A stretch of DNA of 64,000 bases from Nitrosopumilaceae archaeon (GCA_965214835.1 CBDCCK010000002.1:2368001-2432000), one strand, 5' to 3'. Positions 1,134 through 35,506 are shown, counted from the stretch's first letter. Numbers and translations are program-made. The notes: generated by a model from the sequence alone, not told the origin.

Positions 1134-1184
1134 TGACTGCCTCCGTTTACACTCATTAAGTTTAGGATGCATGCAGTTCTGACT

Positions 1185-1313: not shown

Positions 1314-1395
1314 GTTCTGACTGTGACCATGCAGCAAGCTTCAACCCGGATCGGAGGCTTTTTGATCCGTGTCATTATGGACTCCCTGTCAACCA

Positions 1396-1475: not shown

Positions 1476-1642
1476 GTCCGTCGGGATTGGTCTCTGCCTT
1501 ACGTGCGTCCTCGATGTCTCGCAGCAATTTACGCACGAATTCTTGGGTTGAACTTGTCTAGTCGCCGTAAGGCACGCAAGATGCGTCTGGTGAACCATCC
1601 TCCGGCGGTTCCTGCCGTCATGTAGGCCCCCTCGGACGTGTT

Positions 1643-1780
1643 GAGAGTTGATTCGAAATTAGCAAATTCTGACTATTTGAGAACGAGTCTGCATGAAACA
1701 GCTCAAAATATCAGCAGAATAAAGTTACCTGTGAAATCACTTGGGAAATTCGCACGGCTACCAATTTCGGCTCACCTCTC
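1643..1780. mobile_element. MITE family M3 (~138 bp), ends resemble the IS5-like element at 20575
   Basis: GAGAGTTGATTCGAAATT...AATTTCGGCTCACCTCTC imperfect TIR; homologous left part at 3167-3262. Confidence 0.65.
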
Positions 1781-2025
1781 TGGTGCCCGGCTCGTGTACT
1801 ATACCTTGCGGGCCATGTCCGGCTTCATACCTTGGAATCTTGGTTTTATCAATGACTATCATCTGGAATCTGCCTATCAGGACGCACCGAGTCCCTGACG
1901 TTCTACCGGATGTCTTGAAGTCTTTTGAAAGATACCCGGAGTTTGAGGAGATGTCCGTGCTCCCTTGGTGATCTCAGAGGATCTCCTGGTTGGATTTGCA
2001 CTGCGCACGGACACCGCCCCGCGCA

Positions 2026-3140
2026 TCAGTCCGGACGCCCTTTCCTACTGCATACGTCCCTTATGTATCGGCTCAGCTGCCTGCCCGACTGATCAACTGA
2101 CAGCTTTTCAAGATAGTGCCGCCGCCCCTGAATGGCCACGCGCCTCCGGAGGTCGTCGTCGTCCCTCAGCTGCAGGATGCACCGGGCCAGCTCCTCGGGT
2201 GAGTCTGACTGCACCAGCATGCAGTTTTTCTTGTCGACCAGGCCTGCCTCGCGCGTCGTGGGCGTGTCTATGGTGACCAGAGGCTTGGCCGATGACAGGG
2301 TCTGGTTGATCTTGTTGGCCATGGATCCCTTGCACTTGTCGCTTGTGCCAAACAGTCCCAGACACACGTCGCTGTCCTTTATCTGCTGTACGAGTGACAG
2401 AGTAGGAAGCATTCCACGAAATCTTACGTTGGAAAGGCCGGCCTCCTCGGCGTACCGCCTTACTTTGGGCTCGTCCTGGCCGCCGCCGCAGAAGACAAAC
2501 GTTATGTCCTTTTCGCCACGCAGGCGGCCGGCTGCCTCCACTATGACCTTGGTGCCGTACGTGGGAATGAACCCTCCAAAATACAGCACGACGAACTCGT
2601 CCGTCCTCTCCTTGAACGGAATCGGTTTAAAGAGCGGCTCGTATGCGGCAGGCCAGAACCGGCGGAACTTCTCCCTCGGCAGGCCGAACTCCCTGACAAA
2701 GTAGTCGATCTGAAAGGTACTCTCCGTTATTACCAGATCCGAGCACCTGTAGGCGGTTTTTTCTGCAAAGCGGAGGATCCTGGCTTTCAGTGAGTTTTTG
2801 GGAATCTCTTTCCGGACGGTCACAAACGTGTCGTAGATCGAAAAGGGAAAGAAACACACTATTGGCCCTTTGGAAATCAGTCTGGCAAAGGGAGAACTGA
2901 CTAGTCCCCCCCCCACTTCATCGGGATTATCATTACGTCATAATCGATCTTCCTGTGCCTTAGAAACAGCCGGATGTACACCTTGACAATCGAGGAGTTG
3001 AGTGGGACTTCATGGCACTCTACAGTTTCAAAACCCTGTGATTTGAGGATGTACTTTAGCAGATCTCCGGTACTGCCAGATGGAATGCCTCTGGTCGATT
3101 TGACGTAGGAGCCAAAGAGACACACCCTCATGAGTGGCAC
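2026..3140 (-). pseudogene. GT4-family glycosyltransferase, frameshifted at a G9 tract
   Basis: N-part 3140-2901 (MRVCLFGSY) and C-part 2916-2026 (YFGGFIPTYG, GT-B C-terminal motifs) meet at C9 2906-2914. Confidence 0.85.
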
Positions 3141-3166
3141 AACATCAGATCCTATTTAAACCTCCA

Positions 3167-3262
3167 GAGAGTTGATTCGAAGTTGGCAGATTCTGATTAT
3201 TTGTGAACGAATTTGCATGACAGCCCAAAAACATCAACAAAATACAAGTTATCTATGAAATT
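3167..3262. mobile_element. MITE family M3, left part, interrupted by IS630
   Basis: Similar to 1643-1740; ends at the TA of the IS630 insertion. Confidence 0.6.
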
Positions 3263-3336
3263 ATAGCAACGAGCAGAAGTCTTTGAGCCAAAACAGGGTT
3301 CATTCGAAAGGTATGACGATCGCGTAACCGGCAAGC

Positions 3337-4481
3337 ATGGCAAAAGAAACAGACGGCCTGTCAGAGGCCATGCGCAAAGAAAAGGATGTCAAAGTCTACA
3401 AAAAGATCATGGCGCTGGTGTTTGTGCCAGAGGACGACATAGGCGTGCCCGAGACCGCAAAAGGGGTCCGGTGCAGCGAGAATTCCGTGCGCAGCCGGCT
3501 GGCGAGGTTTTCGGAGGACGGCATGGACGGCCTCCGGGATCTTCCCCGTTCCGGATGCAGGCCAAAGGTGGACAGAAAAAGGATTGCCGCCATAATGAAC
3601 CTGTCCATTGAATACAGCAGTACCGACGTCATGACGGTGCGCGATGACACAAGGGATGCCGCCTAGACAGAATACAGCACAGGACATGTCCGAAGACTGA
3701 TGCGCCAGTACGGCCTGTCGCGCCGCAAGGTGCAAAACGTACATGCCAGCCATGCCACCCCAAGCTCGGTATACTCATGGCAGCGGTATCTTGAAAACGT
3801 GCGTATTCCGTGCCTGAAAAACGACGGTTTTACGCTGGTGTCATCTGATGAGGCATTTTTCGTGCAGGGTGCATACGACAGATACGTATGGGGTCCGGTC
3901 GGCACCAGAAGCGTGGCATCGTATTCGGGGGACCACACAAAGGTGGCCGTGTTTGGAAGCATCGCAGAAGACGGCAGAAGGCTGTTCAGGACGTTTACGG
4001 GATCGTTTAGGTCAGTGCAGTTCATACAATGTCTGGAGGCGTTGCGCGCCAAGTTTGGCAAGGTTGCCGTCTTTTGCGACAGGTGGAGTGTGCACAGATC
4101 TATTGACGTCGCAGAATATCTGGCAGGTCATCCCGACATCAGGCTGATAATGATCCCGAAAGGATCGCCGTACCTCAATATCGTGGAAGAATGCTGGAAC
4201 CTGGGCAAGCCTGTCGTTTTCAGGGGGATAGTGTACAGAAGGATCAGCAAGCTGCGGCATGCCATATCCGAATATTACAGGACGGTGTCGTTTGCCCACC
4301 TTTGCATGTCAGTCTTCCCAAAAGTAACCGATTTGTGGCGGTTCAGGAGGTGGCAAGCGGGTATGCAGGCAGTCCGTTTGAATTATTTCGAGCCCGGGAT
4401 AATTTGACGTGGTACTTCTGGGAAGACTGCATGTACAAGTACATTTACAGATCGCCGGTCAAGGCCCTCAATTACTTGTGA
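3337..4481 (+). pseudogene. IS630 transposase pseudogene
   Basis: HTH (DLPRSG) in 3337-3666; in-frame TAG at 3664-3666; DDE motifs SDE, CDRWSVH, PKGSPYLNIVE; C-terminus interrupted by the MITE at 4310-4429. Confidence 0.85.
4310..4429. mobile_element. MITE family M4 (ISH3-type ends, 120 bp)
   Basis: TIR CAGTCTTCCCAAAAGTA...TACTTCTGGGAAGACTG; 5-bp TSD CATGT; removal restores the frame FAHLCMYKYIYRSPVKALNYL*. Confidence 0.92.
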
Positions 4482-5872
4482 CCGTTGCTATACGAACAAA
4501 TTCATCTCATTCAGGTGGATTGCGCATAAAGTCTAATGAGCTAACTATGTGCCACCTACGCCCAAGGAGTCCGATAGGCCATCCTCAAACCCAAGGTGCA
4601 CTAGGAGTGCCCCGTCATAGTCTCCCATACAAGTATGTTCGACGGCGGTTTCTGTGTCTTCGTCGGCCAGTACAGCCATCTCCACATGGCACTCGTGAGC
4701 GGCCGACACGTAGCTGGCAGGCAGCAGTGCCGAATATATCATGACATCATCCAGTACGGTGTCCTGCGCAGGCCCGCCGCCGATGCTGTTGGCGTCTATC
4801 TTAAGCAGATACTCGTTTGCAGCGTATTCTGACAGTAACATGACATGCTTGCCCCGCCTGTCGATCTGTCCGTCCACGTACACGTCGAGTCCGCCGCTGC
4901 TCCCGGAGCCGTCATAGGTGAACACGACGTGGTGCCAGCGGCCGTCGGCCACGCTGGAGAACGTACTGGTGCCTATCTGATCCTGCGCGTTGTCAGTCAT
5001 CATGAGTGAGATCCCGCCGCCGGGGCGGTTCCACACGGTGATACCTTGATGCATGTCCGCATCGTCCTTTGATATGATCGACGAGTCCGGGTCTCCCAGA
5101 CCCGTATTTTTGATCCAGAACGCAATGCTGAACGGATCGTCCACGCCAAGATCGAGGACTGGCGCAGTGGCAAGTGTGATATGTGCAGTATCATCAAGAT
5201 CCAGTGCTCGGCCGGCCGGGCCATACGTGGATAAGGAGGCCCACCCGGGAGGGTTCCATTCCCTTACCTCCACACTGCGATCGACATGCGGGATGACTAC
5301 TGATGGTATCAGTATGTCCGGTTTGGGGGCGTTCTCAAACTCGGCCACCCTGTTGCCGCCGTTGTATATCTCCGAATACCGTCGTATCCAATCCGTTTCT
5401 AGAGACGCTGTCGCATTGTCGCCGCCGCGACTGGTCTCCATCTTGTTCATCTGCCTGTGGTTTCTGTCATTATAATCTACTATTACGATCTTTTTGGTTT
5501 TTTGCGGTTGTGCGGTATGTTTGCCAAAGAAGTCATATACAACCATGCCAGAATCGGTAAGATTGTAGGCCTGCGGCAGCCACGATTCGTGAAACTGTAA
5601 CATGATTATTCCCGCCTCAGAGTCCGCATAGTTTTGCAGCGTAAAGGATACTGCTTCAGAGTACACGGATGTCACGTCCCAGTGCACAAGCACGCCCGAC
5701 GTGGACAGGCCGAGTGCCGCGATCACAAGCACAGCAGCCAGCAGCAGTGTGCGCTGCCCGCTTGAACCCAACCGTCCCGCGGATGCCCTTTCGATTCCGC
5801 TGCCGATCAGTGCGGCGGCGGCAATGCACATCGCAGTCCACAGCATTCCTAGGTGGGAGTACGATACGTATC

Positions 5873-7628
5873 GTAATAGGTTAGCCCCTGCCTAGTTGAT
5901 TTTTTCTGACCACCTGATCTATAAACTATCATTACCCGGGAAATACATGCCTACAGCCTCGGAATTCAAGGAACTATGCAATGAGCTTGCCCGCGAAAAA
6001 GCGGAACTTCAGAAGGAGCAGAAGGAACATCAGAGGACGCAAGGCAAGCTTCAGAAGGAGCAGAAGGAACATCAGAGGACGCAAGGCAAGCTTCAGAAGG
6101 AGCAGAAGGAACATCAGAGGACGCAAGGCAAGCTTCAGAAGGAGCAGAAGGAACATCAGAGGACACGGGAGGAGCTTGCCGCTGAGAAGGCGGGACGCAA
6201 ATCTGACAATGCCGTCTCTGCCGCGCAAATCGCGACGCAGACAGCACAAATCAAGCAGTTCAAACAACGCATCACATATTATGAGAACCCGCACAGCCCC
6301 TCCTCGCAGAACTCGATTCCGACCAGGCAGAAAAAGGCAGCAGCCGCGGCAGGGGCATCTGGAAGGGCACCTACAAGGCCGGGCCGCAGGCCCGGACACG
6401 AGGGCATATCACACAGGAGAACACCGACCCGGGAAATGAACCACGTGCCTGACATGTGCGGCGCGTGCAACGGGCGCGACCTGACAGATCCGGTTCCCGC
6501 CGGAACTAGGATGGCTACTGACATTCCAGAGATCCCAGAGCCGGTCACGACACAGCACTACTTTACCCGCCGCAAGTGCCGCAAGTGCGGCGCCATCACC
6601 ACGACAAACGGGGGCGGGCTGGTCGTTCCGGGCACCGAGTTTGGACCCAACATTGCCTCCTATATCGGCACCCTGTACACCATGCCGGCATCCGTCGGCT
6701 CGATCAGGCGCATCGTAAAGGAGATCTTTAAAATTGATGTAAGCAAGGCGATGATACAGAACTGCCTCAAGACCGTTACAAAGAAGCTTGATCCGTGCGT
6801 GGAGGACATCAAAAAAGACATTGCAGGATGCGACCACGTCCACATGGACGAGACGGGGATGCCATACGACGGCAAGAGCGGCTACATGTGGGTGGCAGTG
6901 GGCGTCAAGGACGGCAATGCCGTCGGCGCGCACATGGTGGCAACTGACAGCAGGAGGGCATCCGTACTGGATGAGCACTTTTCATACGTGCCCAGAGTCG
7001 GGGTGACTGACGGATACCCCGGATACGACAAGTTCTTTGGCAGGAACAGGCAGCGGTGCTGGGCCCACATAATCCGGGAGGCAGACGCCCAAAGCGAGAA
7101 AACGGACTCCCCGGAGGTTCGCGCCGCAGGCGAGCGCCTCAAGTGGCAGATGCATTGCGCCAAGGGGCCGGGGCCGCCGGAGGAGGCTGCCAGGCAGCAC
7201 GACAGTCGGGTGGCAGAAACACGCGAGATTGCCGCCACATACAGGAAGGAAGGATGTGACAGCTGTGCCACAAAGATTGACAACGCCTCGGAGTTTCTCT
7301 ACACGTTTACGACGCGTCCTGGGATGGATCCCACCAACAACCTGGCAGAGCGCACGCTGAGGCCCGGCGTGATCGCGCGCAAGATACGGTTCGGACTGCG
7401 GACAAAAGACGGACAGAAGATGTTCGGTAACATGTTGACGTGCATCGAGACATGGCGCCTCCGGGGGTGCAACGTTACGGACATGATCAGGGACGCGCTG
7501 GTCAGAAACCCCGGGTACGTGGTCGTCTGCCCCTAGCAATCCTGCACTAATCTGCCTGCAGTTGTGATTTTCATGCCTGAAAAGACGGTGGGTGTGACTT
7601 TAACTCTAGGCAGGGGCTAACCTATTAC
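5873..7628 (+). mobile_element. IS66-family single-ORF (ISBst12-like) element, type A, copy 1
   Basis: Perfect TIR GTAATAGGTTAGCCCCTGCCTAG; 8-bp TSD TACGTATC. Confidence 0.95.
5896..7536 (+). CDS. IS66-family transposase (intact; probable ATG at 5947)
   Basis: Coiled coil, CxxC zinc motifs, HMDETG, TDGY, QRCWAH, PTNNLAERTLR. Confidence 0.93.
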   Translation: MIFSDHLIYKLSLPGKYMPTASEFKELCNELAREKAELQKEQKEHQRTQGKLQKEQKEHQRTQGKLQKEQKEHQRTQGKLQKEQKEHQRTREELAAEKAGRKSDNAVSAAQIATQTAQIKQFKQRITYYENPHSPSSQNSIPTRQKKAAAAAGASGRAPTRPGRRPGHEGISHRRTPTREMNHVPDMCGACNGRDLTDPVPAGTRMATDIPEIPEPVTTQHYFTRRKCRKCGAITTTNGGGLVVPGTEFGPNIASYIGTLYTMPASVGSIRRIVKEIFKIDVSKAMIQNCLKTVTKKLDPCVEDIKKDIAGCDHVHMDETGMPYDGKSGYMWVAVGVKDGNAVGAHMVATDSRRASVLDEHFSYVPRVGVTDGYPGYDKFFGRNRQRCWAHIIREADAQSEKTDSPEVRAAGERLKWQMHCAKGPGPPEEAARQHDSRVAETREIAATYRKEGCDSCATKIDNASEFLYTFTTRPGMDPTNNLAERTLRPGVIARKIRFGLRTKDGQKMFGNMLTCIETWRLRGCNVTDMIRDALVRNPGYVVVCP

Positions 7629-8751
7629 TACGTATCCTATTGATCCGAAGAACAATGAGACAGGTACAAACCACAGCACAAGAAATCTGTTGCGCACGGC
7701 CAGCGCAAAAGCGAGCCCTGCCGTACCCAGCGACACCATGACAGGATCTGTCGCGAACACCTGCACCACGGCCCACAGCATGATCGCAGGATGTGTCAAT
7801 ATGTCAGGATCCTGGTCTTGGTGCAGGGCCACCTGCGTGTGCATCTGCATCTCGTTCAGCATGCTTTGACCGTCCCTGTCGGCCTGCCACAGGACGCCGT
7901 TTACCCATCCATCAAAGTCACCTGTCAGCGCAGCAGCCGCGGGCCATGCTGCCGCAATAATGATTACAGACGCAAGCCACAACAGCAGCATCCGCCCCGG
8001 CCTCCTACCGATCGACCATACCAAGGCGAGGACTAGTGGGATCATGACAAGCGAGGGGATCTTGACAAGCATGGCACATCCCATGCAGGCGCCAGATAGA
8101 AGAACCATCAAGCGCGTCTTGTCTGGGGTCTGCGGTAGCAGCTCCCCCCCTCCCCTCCTCACTTGGAACGGGCCGCGTGCGTACATTGCAAGCAGAACGG
8201 AAGACAGGACAAACGGAAGGAAAATCGAGTCCAGCAGAACCAGCCTGAGCGTCAGCGATAAGGGCATTGTCGCAAACAGGACAGCTGCGATCGGCGCGGC
8301 CCTGCGCCCGAATCCCCTCTCGGCTATCTTGTATATCAAAAAGGTGTCCAGAACTGCAAGCAGGCCCATGAGGATGCGCGGTGCCCCATATAGCATCCCA
8401 AGCGAGGACGTATCCTCCGGTGTGACAAAGGAGTCTGGGTACCCTGTGGCATGAAAGAATCCTGCCAGTATCGTCCAGCCAAGGAAAGGGTGGTCGTGCT
8501 TGTCTACCAGCATCTTGTGATGATCCAGGACGTCCAGGGCCCGGTCTATGTAGACTCCCTCATCTATTTCCCACTGTGGAAATCCTGCAGGGTTCCACAG
8601 GTGCGTATACGCAGAAAGCGACAGTATGACTGCAAGCAGGAGGAGATGCTCGTGTCCTGACAGACAGCCTGTGCGAAAAATGGCATGTCTGAGGCCAAGC
8701 ATGGCTTGTCCTCTGCCATTTGACCAAATAACGGTTTGGTACGAGGTCACC

Positions 8752-10373
8752 GTAAGAGTTTACCCCTCATCCGTATAATTTAGATTGAGCACAAGGCCAA
8801 TTTTTGATCACCATCTGGATCCATATGCATCCAGATCACACCTGTATTCATTGCCTGATTCAGAGACCAAGATACTACGCGACGAGTTGGCCCGCACCAT
8901 AGCCGAATTAGGCAGGAAGGACAGGATCATCGCAGACAAGGATCAGACGATAACCATGCTTGTCGAACAGATGGCCGAGTCCTCGGTGACAATCGTGATG
9001 CAGGCATCACAGATCAGCTGGTACAGGCAAAAGGGACCAGAGGGGGTAGCAGCATCTGAGGCGCAGACTGCCGAACTGAAAGCAGAAAACCAGCAGCTCA
9101 GACAGCACATCAAATATTACGAAAACCCGCACACCCCATCCTCGCAGAACTCGATTCCGACCAAGCAGAAAAAGACTGCTGCTGCAAAGGCATCAGGCAA
9201 CGTACCGGCATCTGCAAAGGCAAAGCCGGGCCGCAGGCAGGGACACGAGGGGATATCACACAAGAGAATGCCGACCGAATTTGTAAAGCACTGCCCCAAA
9301 AAGTGCGGCAAGTGCGGCAGCACCAACATGAAGAAGCCGAAAAAGATCTTCTCCAAACTTGTGACCGATACCCCCAGGAGGCCCGAGCCGGTCACGACAC
9401 AGCACACCGCATACAGGCGCAAATGCGCCGACTGCGGCAACATGTGCATCGAAGACGACAGGTCATGGAACGTGCCGGGAACCGAGTTTGGACCAAACAT
9501 CACGGGGATGATGGCCGCAATACGCGTGGCACCTGCCTCCATACAGGCCACGGCCACACTGTGCTCAGAAATCCTGGGCATGGACGTCTCAGAGGCAGGC
9601 GTGCTGCAGTGCCTGAGGGCCGGTGCCAATGCGATAAAGCCCAGCGTAGAGGGCATCAAGCAGGCCATCAAGGATTCTGATTATCTGCATATTGACGAGA
9701 CTGCCATGCCATACAACGGCAGGACGGCCCGCATATGGGTAATAGTAGGCAGGAACAAGGACGGCACCACAACCGGCGTCCACACGCTGGCCGCACCCAG
9801 TAGAGGCAGGGCCGTAGTTGACATGAACTTTCCGTATTATGACAAACCGGTCACAGTCGACGGGTACGGCGTATACGCCGCATTCAAGACCAGGCAGTGG
9901 TGCTGGGCCCACATACTCCGGGAGGCCAGGGAGGCCTGCAAGGCTTCTAGGCAGGCCCACGCGCTGTATGTGGCCCTTAAGAAAAAGTTCATCCATGCCA
10001 AGGGGCTGGGGCCGCCGGAGGAGGGCGCCGCCCGGCACGACATGCTGGTGGCAGAAACGCGCGGGCTGGCCGAGGCATTCGGCATGGAGGCCGGATGCGA
10101 GAGCTTTGCCACAAAGCTTGGGAACGCCTCGGAATACTTGTACACGTTCACATTGCATCCTGGCATGGAGCCCACCAACAACCTGGCCGAGCGCATGCTG
10201 AGGCCGTCCGTAATTGCGCGCAAGGTATTCCAGGGACTCCGTACCATGGAAGGCATGGAGATGTTCACCGTATTGATGACGTGCGCGATGAACTGGCGCG
10301 CCCGGGGGTGCGGCGTGAGGGAAATGCTCGTCAAGACCATGACAGGAAACGTCGCCTGAGGGCAAACTCTTAC
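8752..10373 (+). mobile_element. IS66-family single-ORF element, type B
   Basis: TIR GTAAGAGTTT(A/G)CCC...; flanks AGGTCACC and AGCTGATA do not match (no TSD). Confidence 0.9.
8785..10359 (+). CDS. IS66-family transposase
   Basis: HIDET, VDGY, CWAH, PTNNLAERMLR; diverged paralogue of type A. Confidence 0.92.
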   Translation: MSTRPIFDHHLDPYASRSHLYSLPDSETKILRDELARTIAELGRKDRIIADKDQTITMLVEQMAESSVTIVMQASQISWYRQKGPEGVAASEAQTAELKAENQQLRQHIKYYENPHTPSSQNSIPTKQKKTAAAKASGNVPASAKAKPGRRQGHEGISHKRMPTEFVKHCPKKCGKCGSTNMKKPKKIFSKLVTDTPRRPEPVTTQHTAYRRKCADCGNMCIEDDRSWNVPGTEFGPNITGMMAAIRVAPASIQATATLCSEILGMDVSEAGVLQCLRAGANAIKPSVEGIKQAIKDSDYLHIDETAMPYNGRTARIWVIVGRNKDGTTTGVHTLAAPSRGRAVVDMNFPYYDKPVTVDGYGVYAAFKTRQWCWAHILREAREACKASRQAHALYVALKKKFIHAKGLGPPEEGAARHDMLVAETRGLAEAFGMEAGCESFATKLGNASEYLYTFTLHPGMEPTNNLAERMLRPSVIARKVFQGLRTMEGMEMFTVLMTCAMNWRARGCGVREMLVKTMTGNVA

Positions 10374-10398
10374 AGCTGATAACTCGCATACGTTTTTT

Positions 10399-11487
10399 AT
10401 GTGTGATAGCCGCCAAAATGTCGCGTTGAGACTGTTGTGCGTCTGCCAGGAATCAAAATTACTTCCTGAACGGGAGATCATCGAAAACCTAGGGGAATAC
10501 TCGATAGCGTGGAAGATCGTCGGCACGAGTCAGTTCCTTGAAAAGGGCGTCAGAAGACTGCCCATACTAAACAGAACAAAAAAGAAAAAATTCGAAAGGC
10601 TGCTAGATGAGTTCAACCCCGATTTTGTCATGCTGGACAGTCCAAGCGAGCTGGGGCCTATTGCAGCCGGCAAAAAAATACCGGTGCTGGTGTATTTCTG
10701 GGACAACTGGTCGTACCGGGAAATGGAAAGGGACAAGATGGTTTATCGCAGCATGTATCATGCCGTACGGGCCCGCGTGATGAATCCCTGCCTGAAAAGG
10801 GCCTCCGTCATACTTGCCGAGACTGACTCCGTAGCCGATACCATAAGGGAGCACCATCCCCGAAGCAGCGTGACGACGTTCCCCTATTCCAGCATAGATA
10901 CGGACTATTGGAGCGGCGACGGGCGCAATGGCAGGGGCATGGCGCTGAGACATCCGTGCGTGGGCCTGTTGCAGCATGCCAACGAGTGGTTCAAGGCAAA
11001 GGAGATGCTCATCCTGCCCCGGGTCGTCGAGGCGCTCCCACACGTAACATTCTACTGGGCCGGCGACGGGCGGTACCGCGACAGGATACTGGGGCCGCTG
11101 GCCGGATACGACAACTTTGAGTGGCTGGGGGCACTCGAATACCCCGACAGGGTCAGGGACTATCTCTCCTCGATCGACATATACGGCCTTGCCAGCGCCA
11201 TCGAAATGTCGCCGTACTCGCTAAAACAGGCCATGTCCATGGGCGTGCCGGCGATCGTCACAGATAGTGACTACATATCAGCAACGATGCTGGACGGTAA
11301 GACGGGGTTTCTGGTCAGACGGGGGGATCATGAGGGATGGATAGAAAGGATCTTGCTGCTGCTAGGTGACGCAGAGAGGGCGCAGGAGGTGGGGAGGCAG
11401 GGGCGCAGGTTTGTACGGGACAGCTGGGACAGCAGGCTGGCAGCAGAAAAGCTTGTCGCCATCCTCAAAAGCGTCAGGTCAAAATGA
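10399..11487 (+). CDS. GT4-family glycosyltransferase (5' end possibly truncated by the IS)
   Basis: FYWAGDG, EMSPYSLKQAMSMGVP, DGKTGFLV GT-B motifs. Confidence 0.85.
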   Translation: MCDSRQNVALRLLCVCQESKLLPEREIIENLGEYSIAWKIVGTSQFLEKGVRRLPILNRTKKKKFERLLDEFNPDFVMLDSPSELGPIAAGKKIPVLVYFWDNWSYREMERDKMVYRSMYHAVRARVMNPCLKRASVILAETDSVADTIREHHPRSSVTTFPYSSIDTDYWSGDGRNGRGMALRHPCVGLLQHANEWFKAKEMLILPRVVEALPHVTFYWAGDGRYRDRILGPLAGYDNFEWLGALEYPDRVRDYLSSIDIYGLASAIEMSPYSLKQAMSMGVPAIVTDSDYISATMLDGKTGFLVRRGDHEGWIERILLLLGDAERAQEVGRQGRRFVRDSWDSRLAAEKLVAILKSVRSK

Positions 11488-16680: not shown

Positions 16681-19600
16681 ATTTCTACATGAAAGGCATG
16701 GATGTGCCACATGCTGCAAGCTTTAGCAACGCTGATCCATTTATCTTATAAGGATTCAAACAAAGGTTAGAAACATGCGTAGCGCAACAGCACGAAAAAT
16801 AGCCGGTCTTGTGCTAATGGCATCCATGGCTGCATGTGTGGTGTCCATTGGCATCCCCGGCGTAATGCCGGCAGCAGCACAATACCTTGGAAACGTCGGC
16901 GACGTAGATCCACCGGAATACGGCATTGGGGGATTGATGATCGGTGGTGCTGGAGAGGCACCCGTTAACCTGCTTGTCTCCGCAGTAAACTCGCAGTCTA
17001 ACAGCTATGTTGCAGGACCTCAGGTAATAGAGGTAATAGTCGATGATCCGGGCATCTCAGATACAGACGAGGGAGAGGGCGAGCCGGACGTCGAGATAAA
17101 CGGCAGCGACCTGAGAATGGTTCAGGCCACCGACGGCAGGTGGTACGCCTACTTTGCAAGCCTTGAGCATGCGCGTACAGCTGACGGCACAACCCTGACA
17201 CCGGGAAAAGGATTGGACTATGGCTCGTTCTGTAGCTCTGACACTGCAATCCTGGGATCGGGGGTAGCCGGCTCTGACGGCATCGCAATACCGATAGCGG
17301 GGGGTGCCAATGGTGATGATGCCATGAATGACTGCTCCGGTCTTGCTGCTGATGGCAGCTCTGTGAGCATCAACAACGTAGTCAGGCGGGCAAAGGCAGT
17401 AAACGAGAATTCCGGCGCAAACGGAATCGGCCAGATCGGCTTGGCACATGAGAGCCTGTGGCCCTTCATCCAGCTCTACACATTCAGCCCGGCCGATAGC
17501 ATCATTATCGATTATAACCGAGTCCGATCAACGACACTTGTCTTTGATGCCGTTGAGGGATTTGCCGACATGGAGCTTGACAGGGCAGTCTATCCCCCGG
17601 GTTCGCACGTCCACGTAACGGTAACCGATGCGTGGCTAAACATCGACCCGACAGACGAGGACTCGTGGACTTGGGAGACCGCCGGTCCCAATGAGGGGGA
17701 TGCATACTATGACGTCTTTGGGGCAGGCAATGCTGGGGTACCCGACGGCATTGGTGCTGATGGCACCCTGCTTGTCAATCCAATAACCTCTGACGACGAC
17801 CTCATGCAGGGGGCTGCCGTCTTGCTGCTGGATGCTAGCACGCAGGGCAGCACGGTTATGGAACTTCGGGGAAACCGCAACGCCATGATGGCGGTTCCGG
17901 GACTTGAGCGGCCGGTAACCCTTACAGAGCAGGGCCAAAACAGCGGCACGTTCGGGACATATGACGAGTCAGATGACTCACTTCTTGTGGTTGCCGACGA
18001 TGCACGCAGGGGTGACTCTGCCACCATCCGCTACAGCGACGACCCGCGCACGGTTCTTGTAGGGTTTGGGTCTGCAACGCTTGACATCTTGCCAGTAGAC
18101 GGGGGCCGGGGTTCCGGCAGGGAGGTTGAAGTGGTACTGGTCGACGGCGATGCAAACAAGAACAGCAGGGTAGTGGAGAATCTGCTTCTGTCCGATCCGA
18201 GCACTGCACTGATACCAAGCCTTGTGACCGGAGACCCGTTCACACTGGGCGAGGGTGATGACCCCGGGGCATTCCTGATCCGGGATTCTCTTGCAAGCGA
18301 TGCAGGCATGGCCGGTCTTGAGGTTCAGCCGCTCAGCGAGAGGGCAATTGTCTCAATTGTCTCGGCGATGGATGGCTCCATGGTAAATGCCTCTGGACTG
18401 CTAATTGACCTGGATACTACCATGGCAGAGCTACGCGAGACAATCCAGTACTCAGACACAACAGGCTGGAGTACTGACTTTAAGGGATACAACCTGCTCA
18501 ACTATGACGTTGATTCGCTTACTGACTATAATGCTGTAGACAACATTGAGATAAAATTGGTCAAAGTTGGCGACTCTTCACCCGGATACGCCAGTCCTGT
18601 CACGCTGGCCACAGGCAGCCATGGCCTGGTAAACCTGAGTCTTGACTCTGTCAATGACCATCTGTTCAACGCAACATTCGATGACTCTGACAGCATAGGA
18701 ATACTGTACACCTGGAGTCCGACCCAAATAAGCGAGGGAGACTATCCGATAGTCACCGACTTTTTCTCATTTGGATTCAACGATGACGGAGACCGGGCAT
18801 CCGAACGGGTCGCCAACCAGATAATCCGATTCGAGATGCAGGAACATGATCACAACTCTGATGCCTTCGTGGCTGATCTAGGGCATGTAGTGGTCAACCA
18901 GCTCAACATCCTTGACGAATCAACGTACGAGACGTACCCGATCTCCGATGACCCGAGCTTCGTCGTAGTCGAGGATCTCACCGGCGAGGACTCGCCGAGG
19001 ATAGACTATCTTGACCTAGGAGCCGACGGCGTCTCCACGCAAATCGCCGAACGGCGGGCGGTACCATCCCATTCGGGAGTCGTGTCATTTGACTCGGACA
19101 CCTACAAGGTTGCAGACACGGTCACAGTCAGGCTTGACGATGCCGACATGAACGCAGATGGTAGTGTCATCGACATCTTTACGGTGGTCAAAGTAGAGGA
19201 TGATCCGGCATTTGACATGGTAGGCGTACCGGGTCTCCCAGAGCTTGCATTCGGTCCGCTTGGAGGGCTGCTGGAGATCACGTTTGATGACCAGCGGTGG
19301 CTTGACTCCCAAGCTGGTGCTGTCAGATGTAACGACAGCTTTGACGGTGATGACGGCTTGGGCGCAACGGGAATTCGCATGATTGAGACAGGAGCAGACT
19401 CCGGCACCTTCGTCGGCTACTTTCAGATCCCGACCGAATACTGTGCAAGATCAGACAGCACTGCAGAATGGGCATCCGTAGTCGGCACCGACATTGAGGT
19501 CAACTATGTCGACTTTATGGACGCATCTGGCAAAACCATCGAGGTCGGTGATTCGGCAAGCATCAGAGCATACACCGGCACCGTAAGCCTTGACAGGACG

Positions 19601-20574
19601 GTCTATCCGATCCCGTGGGGGCTTCAGTTCGACGACGGCTCGATATTCCCACTGCACGCAACGGCCATCGACGGCAGCGTAGATCGGGAGGATGAGACGC
19701 TGGGTGAAGGCGTTCTTACGATATACGCAAGAGTATCCGACCAGGATTTTAATGTCTCGGCCTCATATGAGGACGTAATCGAAACCGATGTTTCCACTGT
19801 TGGCGGAACCGGTGTCGGTCCTGTAAGGATCACGGTCTCAAGAGGCGGTGAGAGTGCGGTAATCGCATATGCGGGAGGCAAAACGCCTGGCAATGACTTT
19901 GAGCTCAACGGCCGCATGGTCCAAGACCTTGGGCCGATCTCGGAGATCTCACCCGATGCGGGAGTCTTCGAGCTTGACTTTACCATGAGATTTGACGACG
20001 GCCCGGAAGACAGCGACTGTCCGACGACGGCCACCGGCGGATGCATCCTGCGGGGGGATATCCTTACCGTAGAGTATGTCGATCCGACCGATGTGGCAGG
20101 TGATCCGGGTATTGCTGCCGACTCGGCGATATTTGATCTCAGAGACGGCGCGCTCCGGTCAGACAAGCTAGTCTACATCATAGGCAGCAACATGATCCTG
20201 ACTGTCATCGAGCCGGATTGGAACCTTGACGGTGACGCAGCAGAGACATATGATCTGGACGTCCTGGGATGGGACTCTGGTGCGACAACTACTACCATGG
20301 GGGACAGAGGCATTGATGCGGCAGCATTTGATCCTGAGCCGGCCTACCTGTGGGAGACCGGTGATGGCACTGGAATATTCCAGGTCATAGTCAAGATTCC
20401 TGCCATTCTAGCCGGTGACCGTCTAGGAAGGGGCGAGCAGGTTGTCTTGGAATACATCGACTGGGGCCCGTCCAGAGCAGGTTATGTCGGAGAGGATGGC
20501 GAGGCCATTGGCCTAGACTTGTTCACGTCCATCTTTGGCGCCACCGTAGAGCTTGACCAGAAGGTCTATACCTG

Positions 20575-21659
20575 AGAAGCGATTCTTAATTAGCAGATTT
20601 TGACCCACTTGGGCACTAATCTATGCCTGACGGATCAAAATACCTGTAAAACCATGTACAAATCATGTGTTTGATCGATAGACTGACAAAAAACCCACGG
20701 ACGTTCCGGATGCTTGTAGGAATGACCGAGGCAGAGTTTGACCAGCTGTGTACCGAGGTGCAAAAGAAATTTCCAGATACCGAGAAGAAGAGGCTCTCAA
20801 GGCCCGACCGTGTGCGGGATATAGGCGCAGGCAGGCCCTTTGCCCTGGATCTGAGGAACCGCGTACTGCTGGTCTTGTTCTACTACAGGACGTACGTCTC
20901 CCAGGACGTGGCTGGCGCCATGTTCGGTATAGGACAGGCGTCGGTCTCGCGCTCCATAAGCCTGACTGAGCCCCTGCTAAAACAATGCCTGCCGATCCCC
21001 GAGAAGATTTACAAGGACTCCAAGAGGATCTCCTCAGTCGAGGAGCTGGCCGAGATCTTCCCGGGGATGGTGTGCCTGACTGACGCCTCCGAGCAGCCCA
21101 CAAACAGGCCCAAGAGAAAGGACATGGAAAAGTCGCACTATTCGGGCAAGGCAGGCACGCACACGGCCAAGGTCCAGTATACGGTCAACATACACGGTGC
21201 CATAGTGCACAAGACCCCGCACTCGCCGGGGCGCGTAAACGACGTCAAGATATACCAGATGAAGCATCCCACGTTCTGGAGCGGTGAGGAGGACGGCGAG
21301 GAGCTGCGGCACTATATGGATCGCGGATACCAGGGTGCGCAGCACATCGATGCAGGGACGAAGGTTATACTTCCAATCAAGAAGAGTCCTGGCGGCAAGC
21401 TGACCGACGATGAAAAAGAGTACAACAGAACACACTCAAAGATACGGGTGTACGTGGAGAATGGCATACGCAGGGTCAAGACATTCAAGATAATGAGCTA
21501 CAAGTACAGAAACAGGCTCAGAAAGTACGATCTGGCCAACAGTATCGTGTGCGGGCTGGTCAACCTGAGGATACTGGAACGGATAGCCGCTGTGGCCTGA
21601 AAAACACGGCAGAAAACAACTGCAACCTGCCACTCGTAATTTAATTACGGATTGCTTCT
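20575..21659 (+). mobile_element. IS5-family (ISL2-like, HTH_Tnp_4/DDE_Tnp_4) element
   Basis: Imperfect TIR AGAAGC(G/A)AT(T/C)C(T/G)TAATTA; 3-bp TSD CTG. Confidence 0.9.
20665..21600 (+). CDS. IS5-family transposase
   Basis: TDASEQ, YSGK, MDRGYQG, RVYVENGIRRVK. Confidence 0.92.
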   Translation: MCLIDRLTKNPRTFRMLVGMTEAEFDQLCTEVQKKFPDTEKKRLSRPDRVRDIGAGRPFALDLRNRVLLVLFYYRTYVSQDVAGAMFGIGQASVSRSISLTEPLLKQCLPIPEKIYKDSKRISSVEELAEIFPGMVCLTDASEQPTNRPKRKDMEKSHYSGKAGTHTAKVQYTVNIHGAIVHKTPHSPGRVNDVKIYQMKHPTFWSGEEDGEELRHYMDRGYQGAQHIDAGTKVILPIKKSPGGKLTDDEKEYNRTHSKIRVYVENGIRRVKTFKIMSYKYRNRLRKYDLANSIVCGLVNLRILERIAAVA

Positions 21660-23094
21660 CTGGACCGACAAGGTTCACATTACCGTATTTGCACCCGAGC
21701 ACAACAGCGACGGCTACCTCATTGATGAGATAGGCAGGGACGCACTCGATCCAGTCAGGGTCGCCACCAGGGGACATGAGCTTGGCCAATACAGGCTGGT
21801 CGAGACCGGCACTGATACCGGCGTATTTTCAGGCGCGGTAACCCTTACCGGGTTCGCATACGATGCAGACAGCAACGAGCAGACCGGAGACGAGAACGGC
21901 CATGACGCCAACCCGAGAACCGGCGACTTTGCAGGAGGCGGAAGGGACGGCCTGGGCCCGACCGACGGATTCCTGCAATCCGGTGATGACGACGTCATTA
22001 CGGTCTCCTTTGAATCGTCAGGGGACAAACCCGTGTTCAGCTCTGCATTGATCCAGTGGAACATCGGCGAGGTAACTTGGCTGGATGCAGGCCATCTGAC
22101 AGGCGGAAAAGGCGTGTTGCAGGTGGTAGACCCGGACATGAACCTGAACCCAGAGTCAGTCGACAGCTTTGGCGTCGACGTCTGGTCGGATTCAGACTCT
22201 GGCGGCATTGACCTGATCGTAACTGAAACCGGCGAGGCAACCGGCATCTTCGAAGGTACGGTATTCTTTACTGCCGTTGACAAGTCATACGGCCACGTAC
22301 TCAGGGTTTCAGAGGGCGATGCGGTCACCGGGGAGTACGAGGACAATACCCTGCCCGGCCCATACACGGCTGCAGATGGGCTAAGCATTTTTGCAACCAT
22401 GACCGGAGCGATCGTGCCATCCCTGGAAGGAGCACGTCTCTTTGAGCCCTTTGACAGCCTTGAGGCGTGGATTGAGGAGGGCGAGGTAGACTGGCGCGTG
22501 GGGCCCCCAAAGGAGGGCGGCCACCCGCCGGGCCACTCTGCGGCAGCAAACACGGTGGCAAAGGCAGACAACTGTGACTCCGAATGCAGGTTGGTCCTCT
22601 CAGACGGGCTGGATCTGACCGGGTACGACTCGGCTGTCATGACGCTCTACAGGTACGTCGATGACGACCTTGACGGCGGGGAGTACCTCAGGGTGGACGT
22701 CTCAGACGATGGTGGGGCAAGCTGGACTAGTGCATACGACTGGCAGGGGGGCCGGGACGACGATGACACGTGGATCCGGCACACGCTGGATCTGGCAGAT
22801 CATCTGGCATCAAGTGACTTTAAGGTGAGGCTGGCAGCAAAGGCGTCCCTATCGTCGGAGGATATGATGATCGATACCCTGATCATAGATGGTGTGGTGT
22901 CGGGCAGAACAGCTGCAGCCAGCGTCGGATTCGGAGAAGGTTCCGGATCATCACAGGCCTGTGCAGAAACAAACGATTGCTTTGTGCCAGAAACTGTCAC
23001 CATTGATGCCGGCAGAAAGGTCGTATGGGTTAACAGTGATACTACACACCATACAGTATATTCGGGCACGTTTAAGGATTTGAGACCTGGCACT

Positions 23095-24809
23095 GTAATA
23101 GGTTAGCCCCTGCCTAGTTGATTTTTTCTGACCACCTGATCTATAAACTATCATTACCCGGGAAATACATGCCTACAGCCTCGGAATTCAAGGAACTATG
23201 CAATGAGCTTGCCCGCGAAAAAGCGGAACTTCAGAAGGAGCAGAAGGAACATCAGAGGACGCAAGGCAAGCTTCAGAAGGAGCAGAAGGAACATCAGAGG
23301 ACGCAAGGCAAGCTTCAGAAGGAGCAGAAGGAACATCAGAGGACACGGGAGGAGCTTGCCGCTGAGAAGGCGGGACGCAAATCTGACAATGCCGTCTCTG
23401 CCGCGCAAATCGCGACGCAGACAGCACAAATCAAGCAGTTCAAACAACGCATCACATATTATGAGAACCCGCACAGCCCCTCCTCGCAGAACTCGATTCC
23501 GACCAGGCAGAAAAAGGCAGCAGCCGCGGCAGGGGCATCTGGAAGGGCACCTACAAGGCCGGGCCGCAGGCCCGGACACGAGGGCATATCACACAGGAGA
23601 ACACCGACCCGGGAAATGAACCACGTGCCTGACATGTGCGGCGCGTGCAACGGGCGCGACCTGACAGATCCGGTTCCCGCCGGAACTAGGATGGCTACTG
23701 ACATTCCAGAGATCCCAGAGCCGGTCACGACACAGCACTACTTTACCCGCCGCAAGTGCCGCAAGTGCGGCGCCATCACCACGACAAACGGGGGGCGGGC
23801 TGGTCGTTCCGGGCACCGAGTTTGGACCCAACATTGCCTCCTATATCGGCACCCTGTACACCATGCCGGCATCCGTCGGCTCGATCAGGCGCATCGTAAA
23901 GGAGATCTTTAAAATTGATGTAAGCAAGGCGATGATACAGAACTGCCTCAAGACCGTTACAAAGAAGCTTGATCCGTGCGTGGAGGACATCAAAAAAGAC
24001 ATTGCAGGATGCGACCACGTCCACATGGACGAGACGGGGATGCCATACGACGGCAAGAGCGGCTACATGTGGGTGGCAGTGGGAGTCAAGGACGGCAATG
24101 CCGTCGGCGCGCACATGGTGGCAACTGACAGCAGGAGGGCATCCGTACTGGATGAGCACTTTTCATACGTGCCCAGAGTCGGGGTGACTGACGGATACCC
24201 CGGATACGACAAGTTCTTTGGCAGGAACAGGCAGCGGTGCTGGGCCCACATAATCCGGGAGGCAGATGCCCAAAGCGAGAAAACGGACTCCCCGGAGGTT
24301 CGCGCCGCAGGCGAGCGCCTCAAGTGGCAGATGCATTGCGCCAAGGGGCCGGGGCCGCCGGAGGAGGCTGCCAGGCAGCACGACAGTCGGGTGGCAGAAA
24401 CACGCGAGATTGCCGCCACATACAGGAAGGAAGGATGTGACAGCTGTGCCACAAAGATTGACAACGCCTCGGAGTTTCTCTACACGTTTACGACGCGTCC
24501 TAGGATGGATCCCACCAACAACCTGGCAGAGCGCACGCTGAGGCCCGGCGTGATCGCGCGCAAGATACGGTTCGGACTGCGGACAAAAGACGGACAGAAG
24601 ATGTTCGGTAACATGTTGACGTGCATCGAGACATGGCGCCTCCGGGGGTGCAACGTTACGGACATGATCAGGGACGCGCTGGTCAGAAACCCCGGGTACG
24701 TGGTCGTCTGCCCCTAGCAATCCTGCACTAATCTGCCTGCAGTTGTGATTTTCATGCCTGAAAAGACGGTGGGTGTGACTTTAACTCTAGGCAGGGGCTA
24801 ACCTATTAC
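23095..24809 (+). mobile_element. IS66 type A, copy 2 (transposase frameshifted)
   Basis: Same TIR as copy 1; 8-bp TSD CTGGCACT; G6 instead of G5 at ~23790 splits the gene into 23118-23912 and 23863-24717. Confidence 0.95.
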
Positions 24810-25023
24810 CTGGCACTTTTGGTACTAGCTGGCCAGATGGTGCAGGTGCTGTTGGAAGCATAGGATTCCAAAGCTCGTTTATGGATACGGGAGATGTGTT
24901 CAGACACACGTTTGATGCTCCCGGAGAATATCCGTATTTCTGCATCCTTCATCCTTGGATGGCAGGCACTGTCATTGTAGAAGGCAAATAAACCCATGAC
25001 GAAGACGGACATGTGGATCTGGT

Positions 25024-25310
25024 GTAATGGGATGGCCCCTGCCTAGGTGGCAATCAGGCATACATTTGCCTGCAGTTGTGATTTTCATGCTTGGTCGGCA
25101 AGGGACATGACACCAACTCTGCCTAGACCCACTGTTACATCCTTTACAACTCCCCTCAAATTGGTGCGACCTAATTTTCGTACAATACATTTCATGTGTG
25201 GCTGGCCAAAGACGTCCCGTTCTGCGTCTGAAACTGCCCACATTTAGGGGGCAGACGGGCAGTCTGTGGGAAAAATTGGGCAGCCACACCTTTGGGGCAA
25301 GTCTTATTAC
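25024..25310. mobile_element. Degenerate internally deleted derivative of IS66 type A
   Basis: GTAATGGGATGGCCCCTGCCTAG ... TGCCTGCAGTTGTGATTTTCATGC ... GGGGCAAGTCTTATTAC. Confidence 0.6.
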
Positions 25311-29604: not shown

Positions 29605-30249
29605 TTAATCAAATGCTTCCTGAGATCTGGCCTCTTCGAGGTATGCGCGCCTTTCCTCGTTGATCTTGTCCTGATCAATTGCCAGATCATCCTCAACGAT
29701 CACAATCCCCATGTCGCCAATTGGCTCGTCTTTTGCCTTTTTCTTGGATTTGTTAGCCTTGGCCTTTGCCTTGGCAGTTGCAGGCTTTACCTCCTTGGGT
29801 TTTGCTTCCTTGGTTACAGTAGGCTTGGTGGTCTTGGCCTTTGCCTTGGCAGTTGCAGGCTTTACCTCCTTGGGTTTTGCTTCCTTGGTTACAGTAGGCT
29901 TGGTGGTCTTGGCCTTTGCCTTGGCAGTTGCAGGCTTTACCTCCTTGGGTTTTGCTTCCTTGGTTACAGTAGGCTTGGTGGTCTTGGCCTTTGCCTTGGC
30001 AGTTGCAGGCTTTACCTCCTTGGGTTTTGCTTCCTTGGTTACAGTAGGCTTGGTGGTCTTGGCCTTTGCCTTGGCAGTTGCAGGCTTTACCTCCTTGGGT
30101 TTTGCTTCCTTGGTTACAGTAGGCTTGGTGGTCTTGGCCTTTGCCTTGGCAGTTGCAGGCTTTACCTCCTTGGGTTTTGCTTCCTTGGTTACAGTAGGCT
30201 TGGTGGTCTTGGCCTTTGCCTTTGCTTTCTTTGCAGTCTTTTCTGCCAT
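29605..30249 (-). CDS. Lys/Ala/Thr/Pro-rich repeat protein (histone-H1-like composition) with acidic C-terminal tail
   Basis: 6 x AKAKAKTTKPTVTKEAKPKEVKPAT; tail EERRAYLEEARSQE. Confidence 0.8.
   Translation of the reverse strand: MAEKTAKKAKAKAKTTKPTVTKEAKPKEVKPATAKAKAKTTKPTVTKEAKPKEVKPATAKAKAKTTKPTVTKEAKPKEVKPATAKAKAKTTKPTVTKEAKPKEVKPATAKAKAKTTKPTVTKEAKPKEVKPATAKAKAKTTKPTVTKEAKPKEVKPATAKAKAKANKSKKKAKDEPIGDMGIVIVEDDLAIDQDKINEERRAYLEEARSQEAFD
29761..30210. repeat. Perfect 75-bp tandem repeat x6
   Basis: Unit GGCCTTTGCCTTGGCAGTTGCAGG...GTGGTCTT. Confidence 0.97.
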
Positions 30250-30336
30250 AAATTGCATGAAAGGATAAACTGCATGTTAATAAAACTTGTGCAGAATTGG
30301 ATTTTTGTTTTGGGATCGTTCGATCAGGAATCAAGG

Positions 30337-33916: not shown

Positions 33917-35506
33917 GTAACAGGATAGCCCCTGCCTAGAGTTGAAGTCACGACCCCCCCCCGCCGTCTAGGCATGAAAATCACGCCTGCATGCAGATCC
34001 GTACATGATTGCTAGGGGCAGATGACCACGTATCCGGGGTTTTTGGCCAGCGCGTCCATGATCATGTCCGTAACGCTACACCCCCGGAGGCGCCATGTCA
34101 GGATGCACGTCGATATGTTGCCGAACATCTTCTGCCCGCCTGCAGTCCGAACCGTATCTTGCGCGCGATCACGCCGGGCCTCAGCGTGCGCTCTGCCGGG
34201 TTGTTGGTGGGATCCATCCCAGGATGCGTCGTAAACGTGTAGAGAAACTTCGAGGCATTGTCAATCTTTGTGGCACAGCTGTCACATCCTTCCTTCCTGT
34301 ATATGGCGGCAATCTCGCGCGTCCCTGCCACCAGCCTGTTGCGCTGCCGGGCTCCCTCCGGGGGGGCCAGTCCCTTGGCGTGGTGCAACTGCTCCCTGAG
34401 GCGCCTGCCTGCGTCGCAGACCTCCGGGGAGTCCGTTTTCTCGCTTTGGGTATCTGCCTCCCGGATTATGTGGGTCCAGCACCGCTGCCTGTTCCTGCCG
34501 AAGAACTTTTCGTACCCGGGGTATCCGTCGGTCACCCCGACTCTGGGCACGTATGAAAAGTGCTGATCGAGTACGGATGCCCTCCTGCTGTCAGTTGCCA
34601 CCATGTGCGCGCCGACGGCATTGCTGTCCTTGACGCCCACTGCCACCCACATGTAGCCGCTCCTGCCGTCGTATGGCATCCCCGTCTCGTCCATGTGGAC
34701 GTGGTCGCATCCTGCAATGTCTTTTTTGATGTCCTCCACGCACGGATCAAGCTTCTTTGCAACGGTCTTGAGGCAGTTCTGTATCATCGCCTTGCTTACA
34801 TCAATTTCAAAGATCTCCTTTACGATGCGCCTGATCGAGTCGACGGATGCAGGCATGGCGTGCAGGGTGCCGATATAGGAGGCAATGTTGGGTCCAAACT
34901 CGGTGCCCGGAACGACCAGCCCGCCCCCGTTTGTCGTGGTGATGGCGCCGCACTTGCGGCGGGTAAAGTAGTGCTGTGTCGTGACCGGCTCTGGGATCTC
35001 TGGAATGTCAGTAGCCATCCTGGTTCCGGTGGGAACCGGATCTGTCAGGTCTAGCCTGCTGCACGCGCCGCACCTGTCAGGCACGTGGCTCATTTCCCGG
35101 GTCTGATGCCTCTTGTGTGATACGCCCCCGTGTCCGAGTTTTTGGCCCGGCCTTGCCGGCGCCTTGCCCGGTTCCATTGATGCGGCCGTCTTTTTCTGCC
35201 TGGTTGGTATCGAGTTCTGTGATGACAGGCTGTGCGGGTTCTCATAGTATTTGATGCGCTGCTCGAGCTGCCTATTTTGTGCCGTCAGTGTGGCGATCTG
35301 TGCGGTATCATCGGCCTGTTTTATGGCAGATGCTATCCTTTCTGTGTCAAGCTTCTCCTGCGTCTTCTGAAGCCCCGCCCTGACGCAGACCATCTTCTTG
35401 CTCAATGCCTTGAATTCCGAGGCTGTAGACATGTGTTTCCCGGGTAATGATAGTTTATAGATCAGGTGGTCATAAAAAATCAACTAGGCAGGGGCTAACC
35501 TATTAC
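33917..35506 (-). mobile_element. IS66 type A, diverged copy 3 (transposase 35483-34098, 3' frameshift)
   Basis: TIRs present; different coiled-coil N-terminus; small deletions; no TSD. Confidence 0.92.

Follow-up and report, generated by a model that had tools for sequence, protein, structure and literature searches.

A 64,000-nucleotide stretch of the genome of a Nitrosopumilaceae archaeon (GCA_965214835.1, CBDCCK010000002.1:2368001-2432000; here called the window) carries, in pieces, one gene for a fusion protein built on a surface-layer (S-layer) protein of the SlaA type. As found, the locus consists of two open reading frames (ORFs), one of 1266 residues at 16775-20575 and one of 484 residues at 21652-23106, plus a short frame at 24818-24991 that was not listed as an ORF, with two transposase-bearing blocks between them. 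When 20575-21659 and 23095-24809 are excised and one copy of each flanking duplication is kept, these pieces join into a single frame of 1801 codons, which ends with a TAA stop at 24989-24991 and has no further stop or frameshift. A preliminary description of this DNA had claimed that removal of an IS5 and an IS66 insertion sequence (IS) yields one 1801-residue ORF, and that its final part (24818-24991) lies outside the annotated ORFs. Direct reconstruction bears out all of these coordinates, and the final part joins the frame and ends at 24991. The fusion gene is therefore real and correctly reconstructed. It is also a pseudogene today, with its frame interrupted by two IS insertions, because at most a 1266-residue fragment without the C-terminal passenger domains can be made.

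The interrupted gene and its insertions

The first interruption is an IS5-family (DDE_Tnp_4) element of 1085 bp on the plus strand (20575-21659) with imperfect inverted ends, flanked by a CTG target duplication at 20572-20574 and 21660-21662. Its transposase ORF (20665-21600) matches PF13359 and PF13613, which we take to be IS5-family profiles. The boundary could alternatively be drawn 1 bp further outward with a 1-bp duplication, which leaves the product unchanged. This element occurs once in the window, and the first gene segment, read alone, stops after 1266 residues at a codon created by the end of the element.

The second interruption is an IS66 element of 1715 bp on the plus strand (23095-24809), with perfect 23-bp inverted ends that start with GTAA and an 8-bp target duplication, CTGGCACT, at 23087-23094 and 24810-24817. 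Its ORFs match PF03050 and PF13005, and in this copy the transposase is itself split across two frames (23118-23912 and 23863-24717). Two further near-identical IS66 copies lie at 5873-7628 and 50260-51931, and because each of them also has its own 8-bp duplication, the duplication in the fusion gene reflects normal behavior of the element rather than chance. A fourth copy at 33917-35506 is 88% identical. The insertion is recent, since long stretches of the IS66 copies match at 99% identity. All four differ in length, apparently because their first ORF contains different numbers of a 21-bp repeat unit.

Evidence apart from the duplications confirms both joins. At the first, the alignment of the upstream segment with the S-layer protein of Nitrosopumilus maritimus (NmSLP; PDB 8C8K) ends at residue 1377, and that of the downstream segment starts at residue 1378. 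At the second, the two sides match complementary parts of the PF00127 profile, namely positions 13-39 (E 0.015, below the cut-off) and 61-99 (E 1.9e-4, above it). The two sides are also colinear with intact archaeal cupredoxins (39-44% identity over ~100 residues) and share a low GC content at third codon positions (GC3; 0.40 and 0.39). Furthermore, database protein P0121, from a cluster of two members, differs from the 484-residue ORF by one residue. Because P0121 reads from the IS5 end through domains 8 and 9, the jelly-roll module and the N-terminal half of the cupredoxin into the IS66 end, both insertions are present in another record.

A TATA-box-like TTATAA (16746-16751, plus strand) lies 24-29 nt 5' of the ATG and, by comparison with archaeal promoters in general, is a putative promoter that would give a short leader or none. 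It might still drive the passenger-free 1266-residue fragment. A promoter and terminator scan with a bacterial model performed at chance level here. An IS66-related remnant lies 33 nt past the stop codon (25024-25138, plus strand); its first part (25024-25093) matches IS66 sequence from the left end together with a portion of the right end, its far end was assigned by eye, and no target duplication was seen around it.

Domain architecture and the position of the swap

The reconstructed protein opens with a predicted Sec signal peptide (16775-16879, plus strand, approximately residues 1-35) that shares an IPGVMP motif with NmSLP. The prediction comes from hydropathy: the most hydrophobic stretch of the protein lies at residue 9 (19-residue hydropathy of 2.36). 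The body that follows, an SlaA-like one as the preliminary description had proposed, comprises approximately immunoglobulin (Ig) domains 1-7 and the first residues of domain 8 (16880-20574, plus strand; 8C8K residues 27-1377, E 3e-277), and then domains 8 and 9 (21663-22437, plus strand; 8C8K residues 1378-1625, E 3.6e-90). The start of domain 8 was placed by reference to a repeated cassette in other proteins. Residues 36-1525 thus correspond in colinear order to NmSLP-type Ig domains 1-9. Compared with the canonical proteins P0066 and P0076, the body is 60% identical (over 1571 columns with P0066), and the nine lattice domains are retained in order with gaps of 6% relative to P0066.

The protein also keeps an S-layer-like composition, rich in aspartate and poor in lysine and arginine (11.9% Asp and 1.1% Lys, versus canonical medians of 11.4% and 1.4%), and an Asp/Glu pair of the central pore is retained (D98/E99, equivalent to D73/E74 of NmSLP). 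For the rise in negative charge from N to C terminus expected of this type, net charge per residue lies between -0.09 and -0.15 in blocks of 150 residues with no steady trend. The protein has six sequons versus a canonical median of 11. Two further observations concern this region. A 25-residue insert after the signal peptide (16880-16960), which is not in the sister protein P0066, would sit near the central pore. Domain 9 (22102-22350) gives a weak match (E 4.9e-9), far under the cut-off, to NF052345, the anammox Kustd1514 S-layer family, which suggests that the two share an Ig module.

Homology to NmSLP breaks off at approximately residue 1625, in the linker between domains 9 and 10, where canonical genes continue into domain 10. 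Nothing in the window matches the tenth, C-terminal Ig domain. A near-complete SlaA body was present in 86 of 386 fetched proteins; 84 of the 86 retain domain 10, which is the last domain in 82, and four have C-terminal extensions of other kinds. In NmSLP, the model of domain 9 reaches residue 1616; this domain is described as the membrane-proximal base of the layer, and domain 10 is unresolved and placed beyond it in the pseudoperiplasm (structural description in PMC11153153). Because homology ends near residue 1625 and domain 9 is modelled to 1616, the passengers replace exactly domain 10. In that position the copper site would look towards the membrane and not outward, at odds with the surface display envisaged in the preliminary description. 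Lacking domain 10 and with low conservation (see below), the gene is a derivative of NmSLP-type SlaA and not a canonical member.

The first passenger is a MAM/reelin-like beta-jelly-roll module of 157 residues (22438-22908, plus strand; residues 1526-1682; GC3 of 0.73). Its AlphaFold2 model, built from an alignment of 58 sequences, has a predicted local distance difference test score (pLDDT) of 96, in agreement with the jelly-roll-like middle module named earlier. Its structural matches (VIA-align) are tied between reelin (2E26; Z of 14.8, root mean square deviation [rmsd] of 2.5, 137 residues aligned) and MAM (8YT7; Z of 14.2, rmsd of 2.9, 145 aligned), Foldseek agrees with this assignment, and the matching Atlas clusters are cleaved-adhesin-like (0.93-0.94). 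PF00629 does not match the window module, for which the best Pfam hit is PF21471 (E 0.1), and is listed for six of 28 scanned homologues; a profile search against PDB sequences gave no matches. We thus describe the module as MAM-like rather than filing it as MAM. One Cys pair and three Trp residues are invariant across the 58 aligned sequences, and the Pfam copy searched contains no model specific to this large family. A query spanning the module gave 1133 matches, with partners that include S8, HYR and PKD domains, and among the matches listed the nearest copies (71-78% identical) lie in S8 proteases and other secreted proteins. The module is promiscuous.

The second passenger, a predicted cupredoxin (residues 1683-1801), ends directly after its last strand. 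Its N-terminal half (22909-23094, plus strand) carries a conserved Cys pair (C1700/C1706) and the ligand H1730 (codon 23050-23052), and matches plastocyanin (E 0.0046); PF00127 scores 16.1 bits on this half alone, under the cut-off. The C-terminal half (24818-24991, plus strand) carries C1786, H1789 and M1792, scores 22.2 bits against a PF00127 cut-off of 21.2, and matches 9CCK (C-terminal region), 5FC9 and amicyanin (1ID2). All four residues align with the ligand positions of homologues, which upholds the full type-1 copper ligand set first noticed in the preliminary description; of the two His in its HHTV motif, the ligand is the second (H1730), the one that lines up with the His of plastocyanin. 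By these sequence tests the last domain would be a type-1 cupredoxin, with its whole-domain fold predicted from homology. When the jelly roll and the N-terminal half were folded together as a single sequence, the mean pLDDT was 42. The cupredoxin has no signal peptide of its own and no membrane anchor, as peak hydropathy beyond residue 1500 is 1.25. A single buried type-1 copper site is an electron-transfer center and not a chelator, and the copper capture suggested earlier is thus not supported.

Distribution and evolutionary history

Searches for an intact counterpart covered several sequence sets. Neither a type-1 motif nor a cupredoxin was found in any of the 86 near-full SlaA bodies. Among proteins of 838-2390 residues (8000 candidates scored), none of the best 120 of 1350 matches contained the copper motif, the jelly roll or a cupredoxin. 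A close intact orthologue would have topped that list and did not, and distant ones could sit among the other 1230. The N-terminal half of the cupredoxin was likewise found in none of 75 long candidate proteins, in a word-based search that is weak evidence. The query spanning the jelly roll recovered an SlaA match in two of the best 150 of 1133 proteins, namely the near-identical P0121 and a weak match at 29% identity (P0187). At ten GTDB loci, nine genes run on into domain 10 and one is cut by a contig end; the jelly roll is in none of them, and one locus (L006) has a separate cupredoxin gene ~7.8 kb downstream. We found no description of an SlaA-cupredoxin fusion in the literature searched, which included PMC12153357, PMC3750248, PMC4535781, PMC12175726 and bioRxiv 10.64898/2026.08.31.748207 but mostly leaves out subscription papers and also the supplement of PMC6790972, which is possibly relevant because it concerns S-layer proteins of a sponge-associated ammonia-oxidizing archaeon (AOA).

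The preliminary description had counted it against a genuine fusion if relatives had these modules only as separate genes, and this holds in part. In the closest relatives the modules are separate (SlaA in P0066 and P0076, the jelly roll in S8 proteases) and no intact fusion appeared; canonical SlaA P0066 and the jelly-roll S8 protease P0272 hint that one relative has both as separate genes. P0319, which emerged from the best 120 of 226 matches, joins a cupredoxin to domains 9 and 10. The domain 8-9 cassette occurs up to four times per chain, together with RTX, Big_9/cadherin, SdrD, FG-GAP and propeller domains (P0001-P0027, P0273-P0280), and cupredoxin-HYR/Ig mosaics appear as Atlas clusters with scores of 0.77-0.88 that are leads only. 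Module shuffling is thus common in the group, and the full architecture is unique so far.

Two single records were noted in the course of these searches. P0093 (1929 residues) is an otherwise canonical SlaA with an ice-binding domain (PF11999, E 3e-35) at residues 541-739. The insert lies at the start of a hypervariable region (P0086 ~519-552), in what would be the outward-projecting domain 4, and P0093 would therefore be an S-layer protein with an outward ice-binding passenger. P0380 places a SurA N-terminal domain on a canonical SlaA C terminus; it is probably an assembly chimera and calls for caution with fusions known from one record.

To place the gene, a tree was built from 64 sequences (848 columns, window residues 691-1525, midpoint root), leaving out 21 of 84 long homologues with incomplete single-segment coverage. 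The SlaA body groups as sister to P0043, P0051, P0066 and P0076, all four canonical SlaAs, with support of 1.0 and a branch length of 0.49. Positions unchanged in 90% or more of 79 canonical SlaAs were counted as conserved (588 positions, with bins numbered on the canonical homologue P0086 rather than NmSLP). The body retains 469 of these (80%), whereas all 79 canonical proteins keep at least 91% (89-94% in leave-one-out tests of three). Moreover, 21% of conserved sites are changed relative to its sisters, compared to at most 5.3% between canonical proteins that are similarly divergent (89 such pairs among 400 sampled at random).

This erosion is not decay of a dead gene. In neutral simulations, stop-free runs numbered 0 of 100 at 10% or 15% amino-acid change and 10 of 100 at 5%, and the substitutions are more conservative than neutral (mean BLOSUM62 score of -0.05 versus -0.62 +/- 0.17, reached in 0 of 500 runs). 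Both of these null models are simple, and hydrophobic-to-hydrophobic exchange (19 of 26) and loss of Gly and Pro fall within the neutral range. Because the erosion is not post-mortem, the gene would have gone on evolving with its frame intact, as a paralogue under relaxed constraint. In the cupredoxin part, GC3 is 0.40 (47 of 119 codons) compared with 0.62 (1046 of 1682) for the remainder (p 1.5e-6), no upstream stretch of 119 codons falls under 0.53, and one of 29 hand-picked window genes has a GC3 as low. Given a GC3 so far under that of the rest of the gene, the cupredoxin looks like a late graft from a source of lower GC content. We infer that a relaxed but intact body came first, that the cupredoxin was added late and that the IS insertions came last. 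Overall, the gene looks like a duplicated slaA paralogue in an IS-rich AOA of the Nitrosopumilus group with 54% GC.

Upstream of the paralogue lies an IS-riddled glycosylation cluster (66-11487) with an NAD-dependent epimerase and GT4 glycosyltransferases, and together they form a variable cell-surface island. Elsewhere in the window, positions 29605-30258 (minus strand) encode a Lys/Ala-rich protein with six 75-bp (25-residue) repeats, a histone-H1-like composition and no Pfam match.

Possible function and relation to known systems

We consider the chances about even that this is a lineage-specific, domain-shuffled gene whose intact product hung a blue-copper shuttle under the S-layer lattice and which is now a pseudogene. 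The sequence itself shows the domain order, the ligands, where the swap took place, the erosion and the two insertions: the flexible tenth Ig domain was exchanged at the domain 9/10 linker for the MAM/reelin-like module and then the type-1 cupredoxin. The proposed mechanism goes further. The intact protein would have been exported by Sec and would have entered the lattice as a minor subunit, placing the blue-copper domain on a two-domain tether in the pseudoperiplasm, under the layer, where it could have passed single electrons between membrane copper enzymes. Because the cupredoxin has no anchor of its own, it would be held by the lattice, and the S-layer might serve as a retention device in place of the usual membrane anchor. 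AOA plastocyanins are hypothesized electron carriers (PMC7785015), and an S-layer protein is reported to cross-link to ammonia monooxygenase subunits (PMC10030591). A working device in the present genome is unlikely because the gene is doubly interrupted and eroded at conserved sites.

Several points weigh against this proposal. Regarding the passengers, the whole-domain fold of the cupredoxin is predicted from homology, and one of its loops exceeds those of five aligned homologous domains by ~16 residues; the MAM-like module suits adhesion more than electron transfer. Regarding the body, loss of 20% of conserved positions across all nine domains could mean that co-assembly into the lattice had been lost. 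The selection tests cover only the SlaA body; the cupredoxin may have been acquired not long before the gene was inactivated. No intact full-length orthologue was found in the sequence sets searched, and therefore nothing shows that the three-part fusion was ever selected. Finally, the 64-kb window, the only stretch of the genome examined, contains no canonical slaA, and a sponge-symbiont lifestyle fits only by GC content and IS load (PMC7848895 and PMC6790972).

The main competing explanation, possible but to be held tentatively, is that the product was a secreted mosaic and not a lattice subunit, with an SlaA Ig stalk, a MAM-like unit for adhesion to the host matrix or binding of its glycans, and an incidental cupredoxin that was never strongly selected. 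The repeated domain 8-9 cassette with its many passengers, the promiscuity of the jelly roll (1133 matches; S8, HYR and PKD partners) and the cupredoxin-HYR/Ig Atlas leads all fit such a protein, as do the eroded body, the singleton status of the gene, its two insertions and the MAM-like module. Against it, all nine lattice domains persist in order with 6% gaps relative to P0066, the central-pore Asp/Glu pair and the Asp-rich, Lys-poor composition are retained, and the swap takes out only a disordered domain outside the rigid lattice. The earlier idea of an outward-facing redox or copper-capture domain on the S-layer seems improbable. Its basis, the fusion and its ligand set, is real, and S-layer/redox fusions for electron export have been proposed in anaerobic methanotrophic (ANME) archaea (PMC9012536). 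Nevertheless, the C terminus of NmSLP is membrane-proximal, domain 10 is pseudoperiplasmic and the lattice pores measure ~5 A, as described for that structure (PMC11153153). A lone type-1 site also cannot make a wire, and the passenger of P0093 sits elsewhere, internally, near the presumed outward domain 4.

Two explanations that concern the insertions have still less in their favor. A reversible switch, in which some cells regain the gene by precise IS excision, is very improbable: both duplications are intact, the frame is otherwise undamaged, and phase variation by IS excision is known in bacteria, but such a switch would require two precise excisions independent of each other, the sole database variant (P0121) also bears both IS ends, and random insertion suffices because the window is saturated with IS copies. 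An assembly chimera across multicopy IS elements is the reading to which we give the least credence. The 99% identity of window IS66 copies over long stretches, the existence of apparent database chimeras such as P0380 and the position of the long cupredoxin loop at the IS66 site would all allow it, whereas matching duplications flank both elements, NmSLP numbering continues from 1377 straight to 1378, the two halves of the cupredoxin complement each other and have equal GC3, and the stretches that contain the two domain fusions are free of IS sequence and recur in P0121.

If a carrier hung from the S-layer proves true, it would be a new way of keeping an electron carrier in the pseudoperiplasm. 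AOA lack c-type cytochromes, and their presumed electron carriers are blue-copper proteins (PMC7785015). SlaA domain 10 would also be exchangeable, which bears on the engineering of inward-facing S-layer fusions and on the idea, put forward in PMC11153153, that domain 10 may anchor the lattice. It is doubtful, yet conceivable, that some AOA more generally use the inner face of the S-layer as an electron-transport scaffold, with a minor SlaA subunit bearing a tethered blue-copper shuttle and the domain 9/10 linker as a natural plug-in site for passengers. Were this so, IS-free, expressed alleles would exist in sister strains. The finding has limited value, since no copy is known other than this broken and eroded one, and its by-products, a mobile SlaA domain 8-9 module and an SlaA with an ice-binding insert, may outweigh it.

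Among known systems, NmSLP (Nmar_1547; 8C8K; PMC11153153) resembles the fusion in its signal peptide, the order of Ig domains 1-9, the Asp-rich, Lys-poor composition and the pore pair. Unlike NmSLP, the fusion has a jelly roll and cupredoxin in place of domain 10, a 25-residue insert (relative to P0066), 20% of conserved sites lost, fewer sequons and two interruptions. With AOA blue copper proteins, amicyanin and plastocyanin (PF00127; 5FC9, 9CCK and 1ID2), the cupredoxin shares the His and C-x2-H-x2-M loop, and its N-terminal-side Cys pair also occurs in P0221 and P0319. It differs from these type-1 proteins in being tethered to an S-layer body without its own signal peptide or anchor and in its longer loop, and it has the axial Met that 5FC9 lacks.

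The ANME proteins MHC-A/B likewise fuse an archaeal redox-cofactor domain to an S-layer domain; they have many hemes proposed to cross the layer outward and are conserved and membrane-anchored (PMC9012536). In contrast, the present fusion would have one copper site on the inner face, belongs to another S-layer family, lacks a C-terminal hydrophobic helix and is a single broken gene. Sponge AOA (Ca. Nitrosospongia ianthellae and Cenarchaeum symbiosum) also have many S-layer paralogues and transposase-rich genomes, and passages of the main text of PMC6790972 give no cupredoxin fusion among their S-layer families. Also comparable is P0319 (658 residues, one record), in which an intact type-1 cupredoxin and SlaA domain 9 also share one chain. 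Its order is different (cupredoxin, Ig-like stretch, domain 9, domain 10, HYR), and it lacks domains 1-8 and so has no lattice body; P0319 is an independent fusion.

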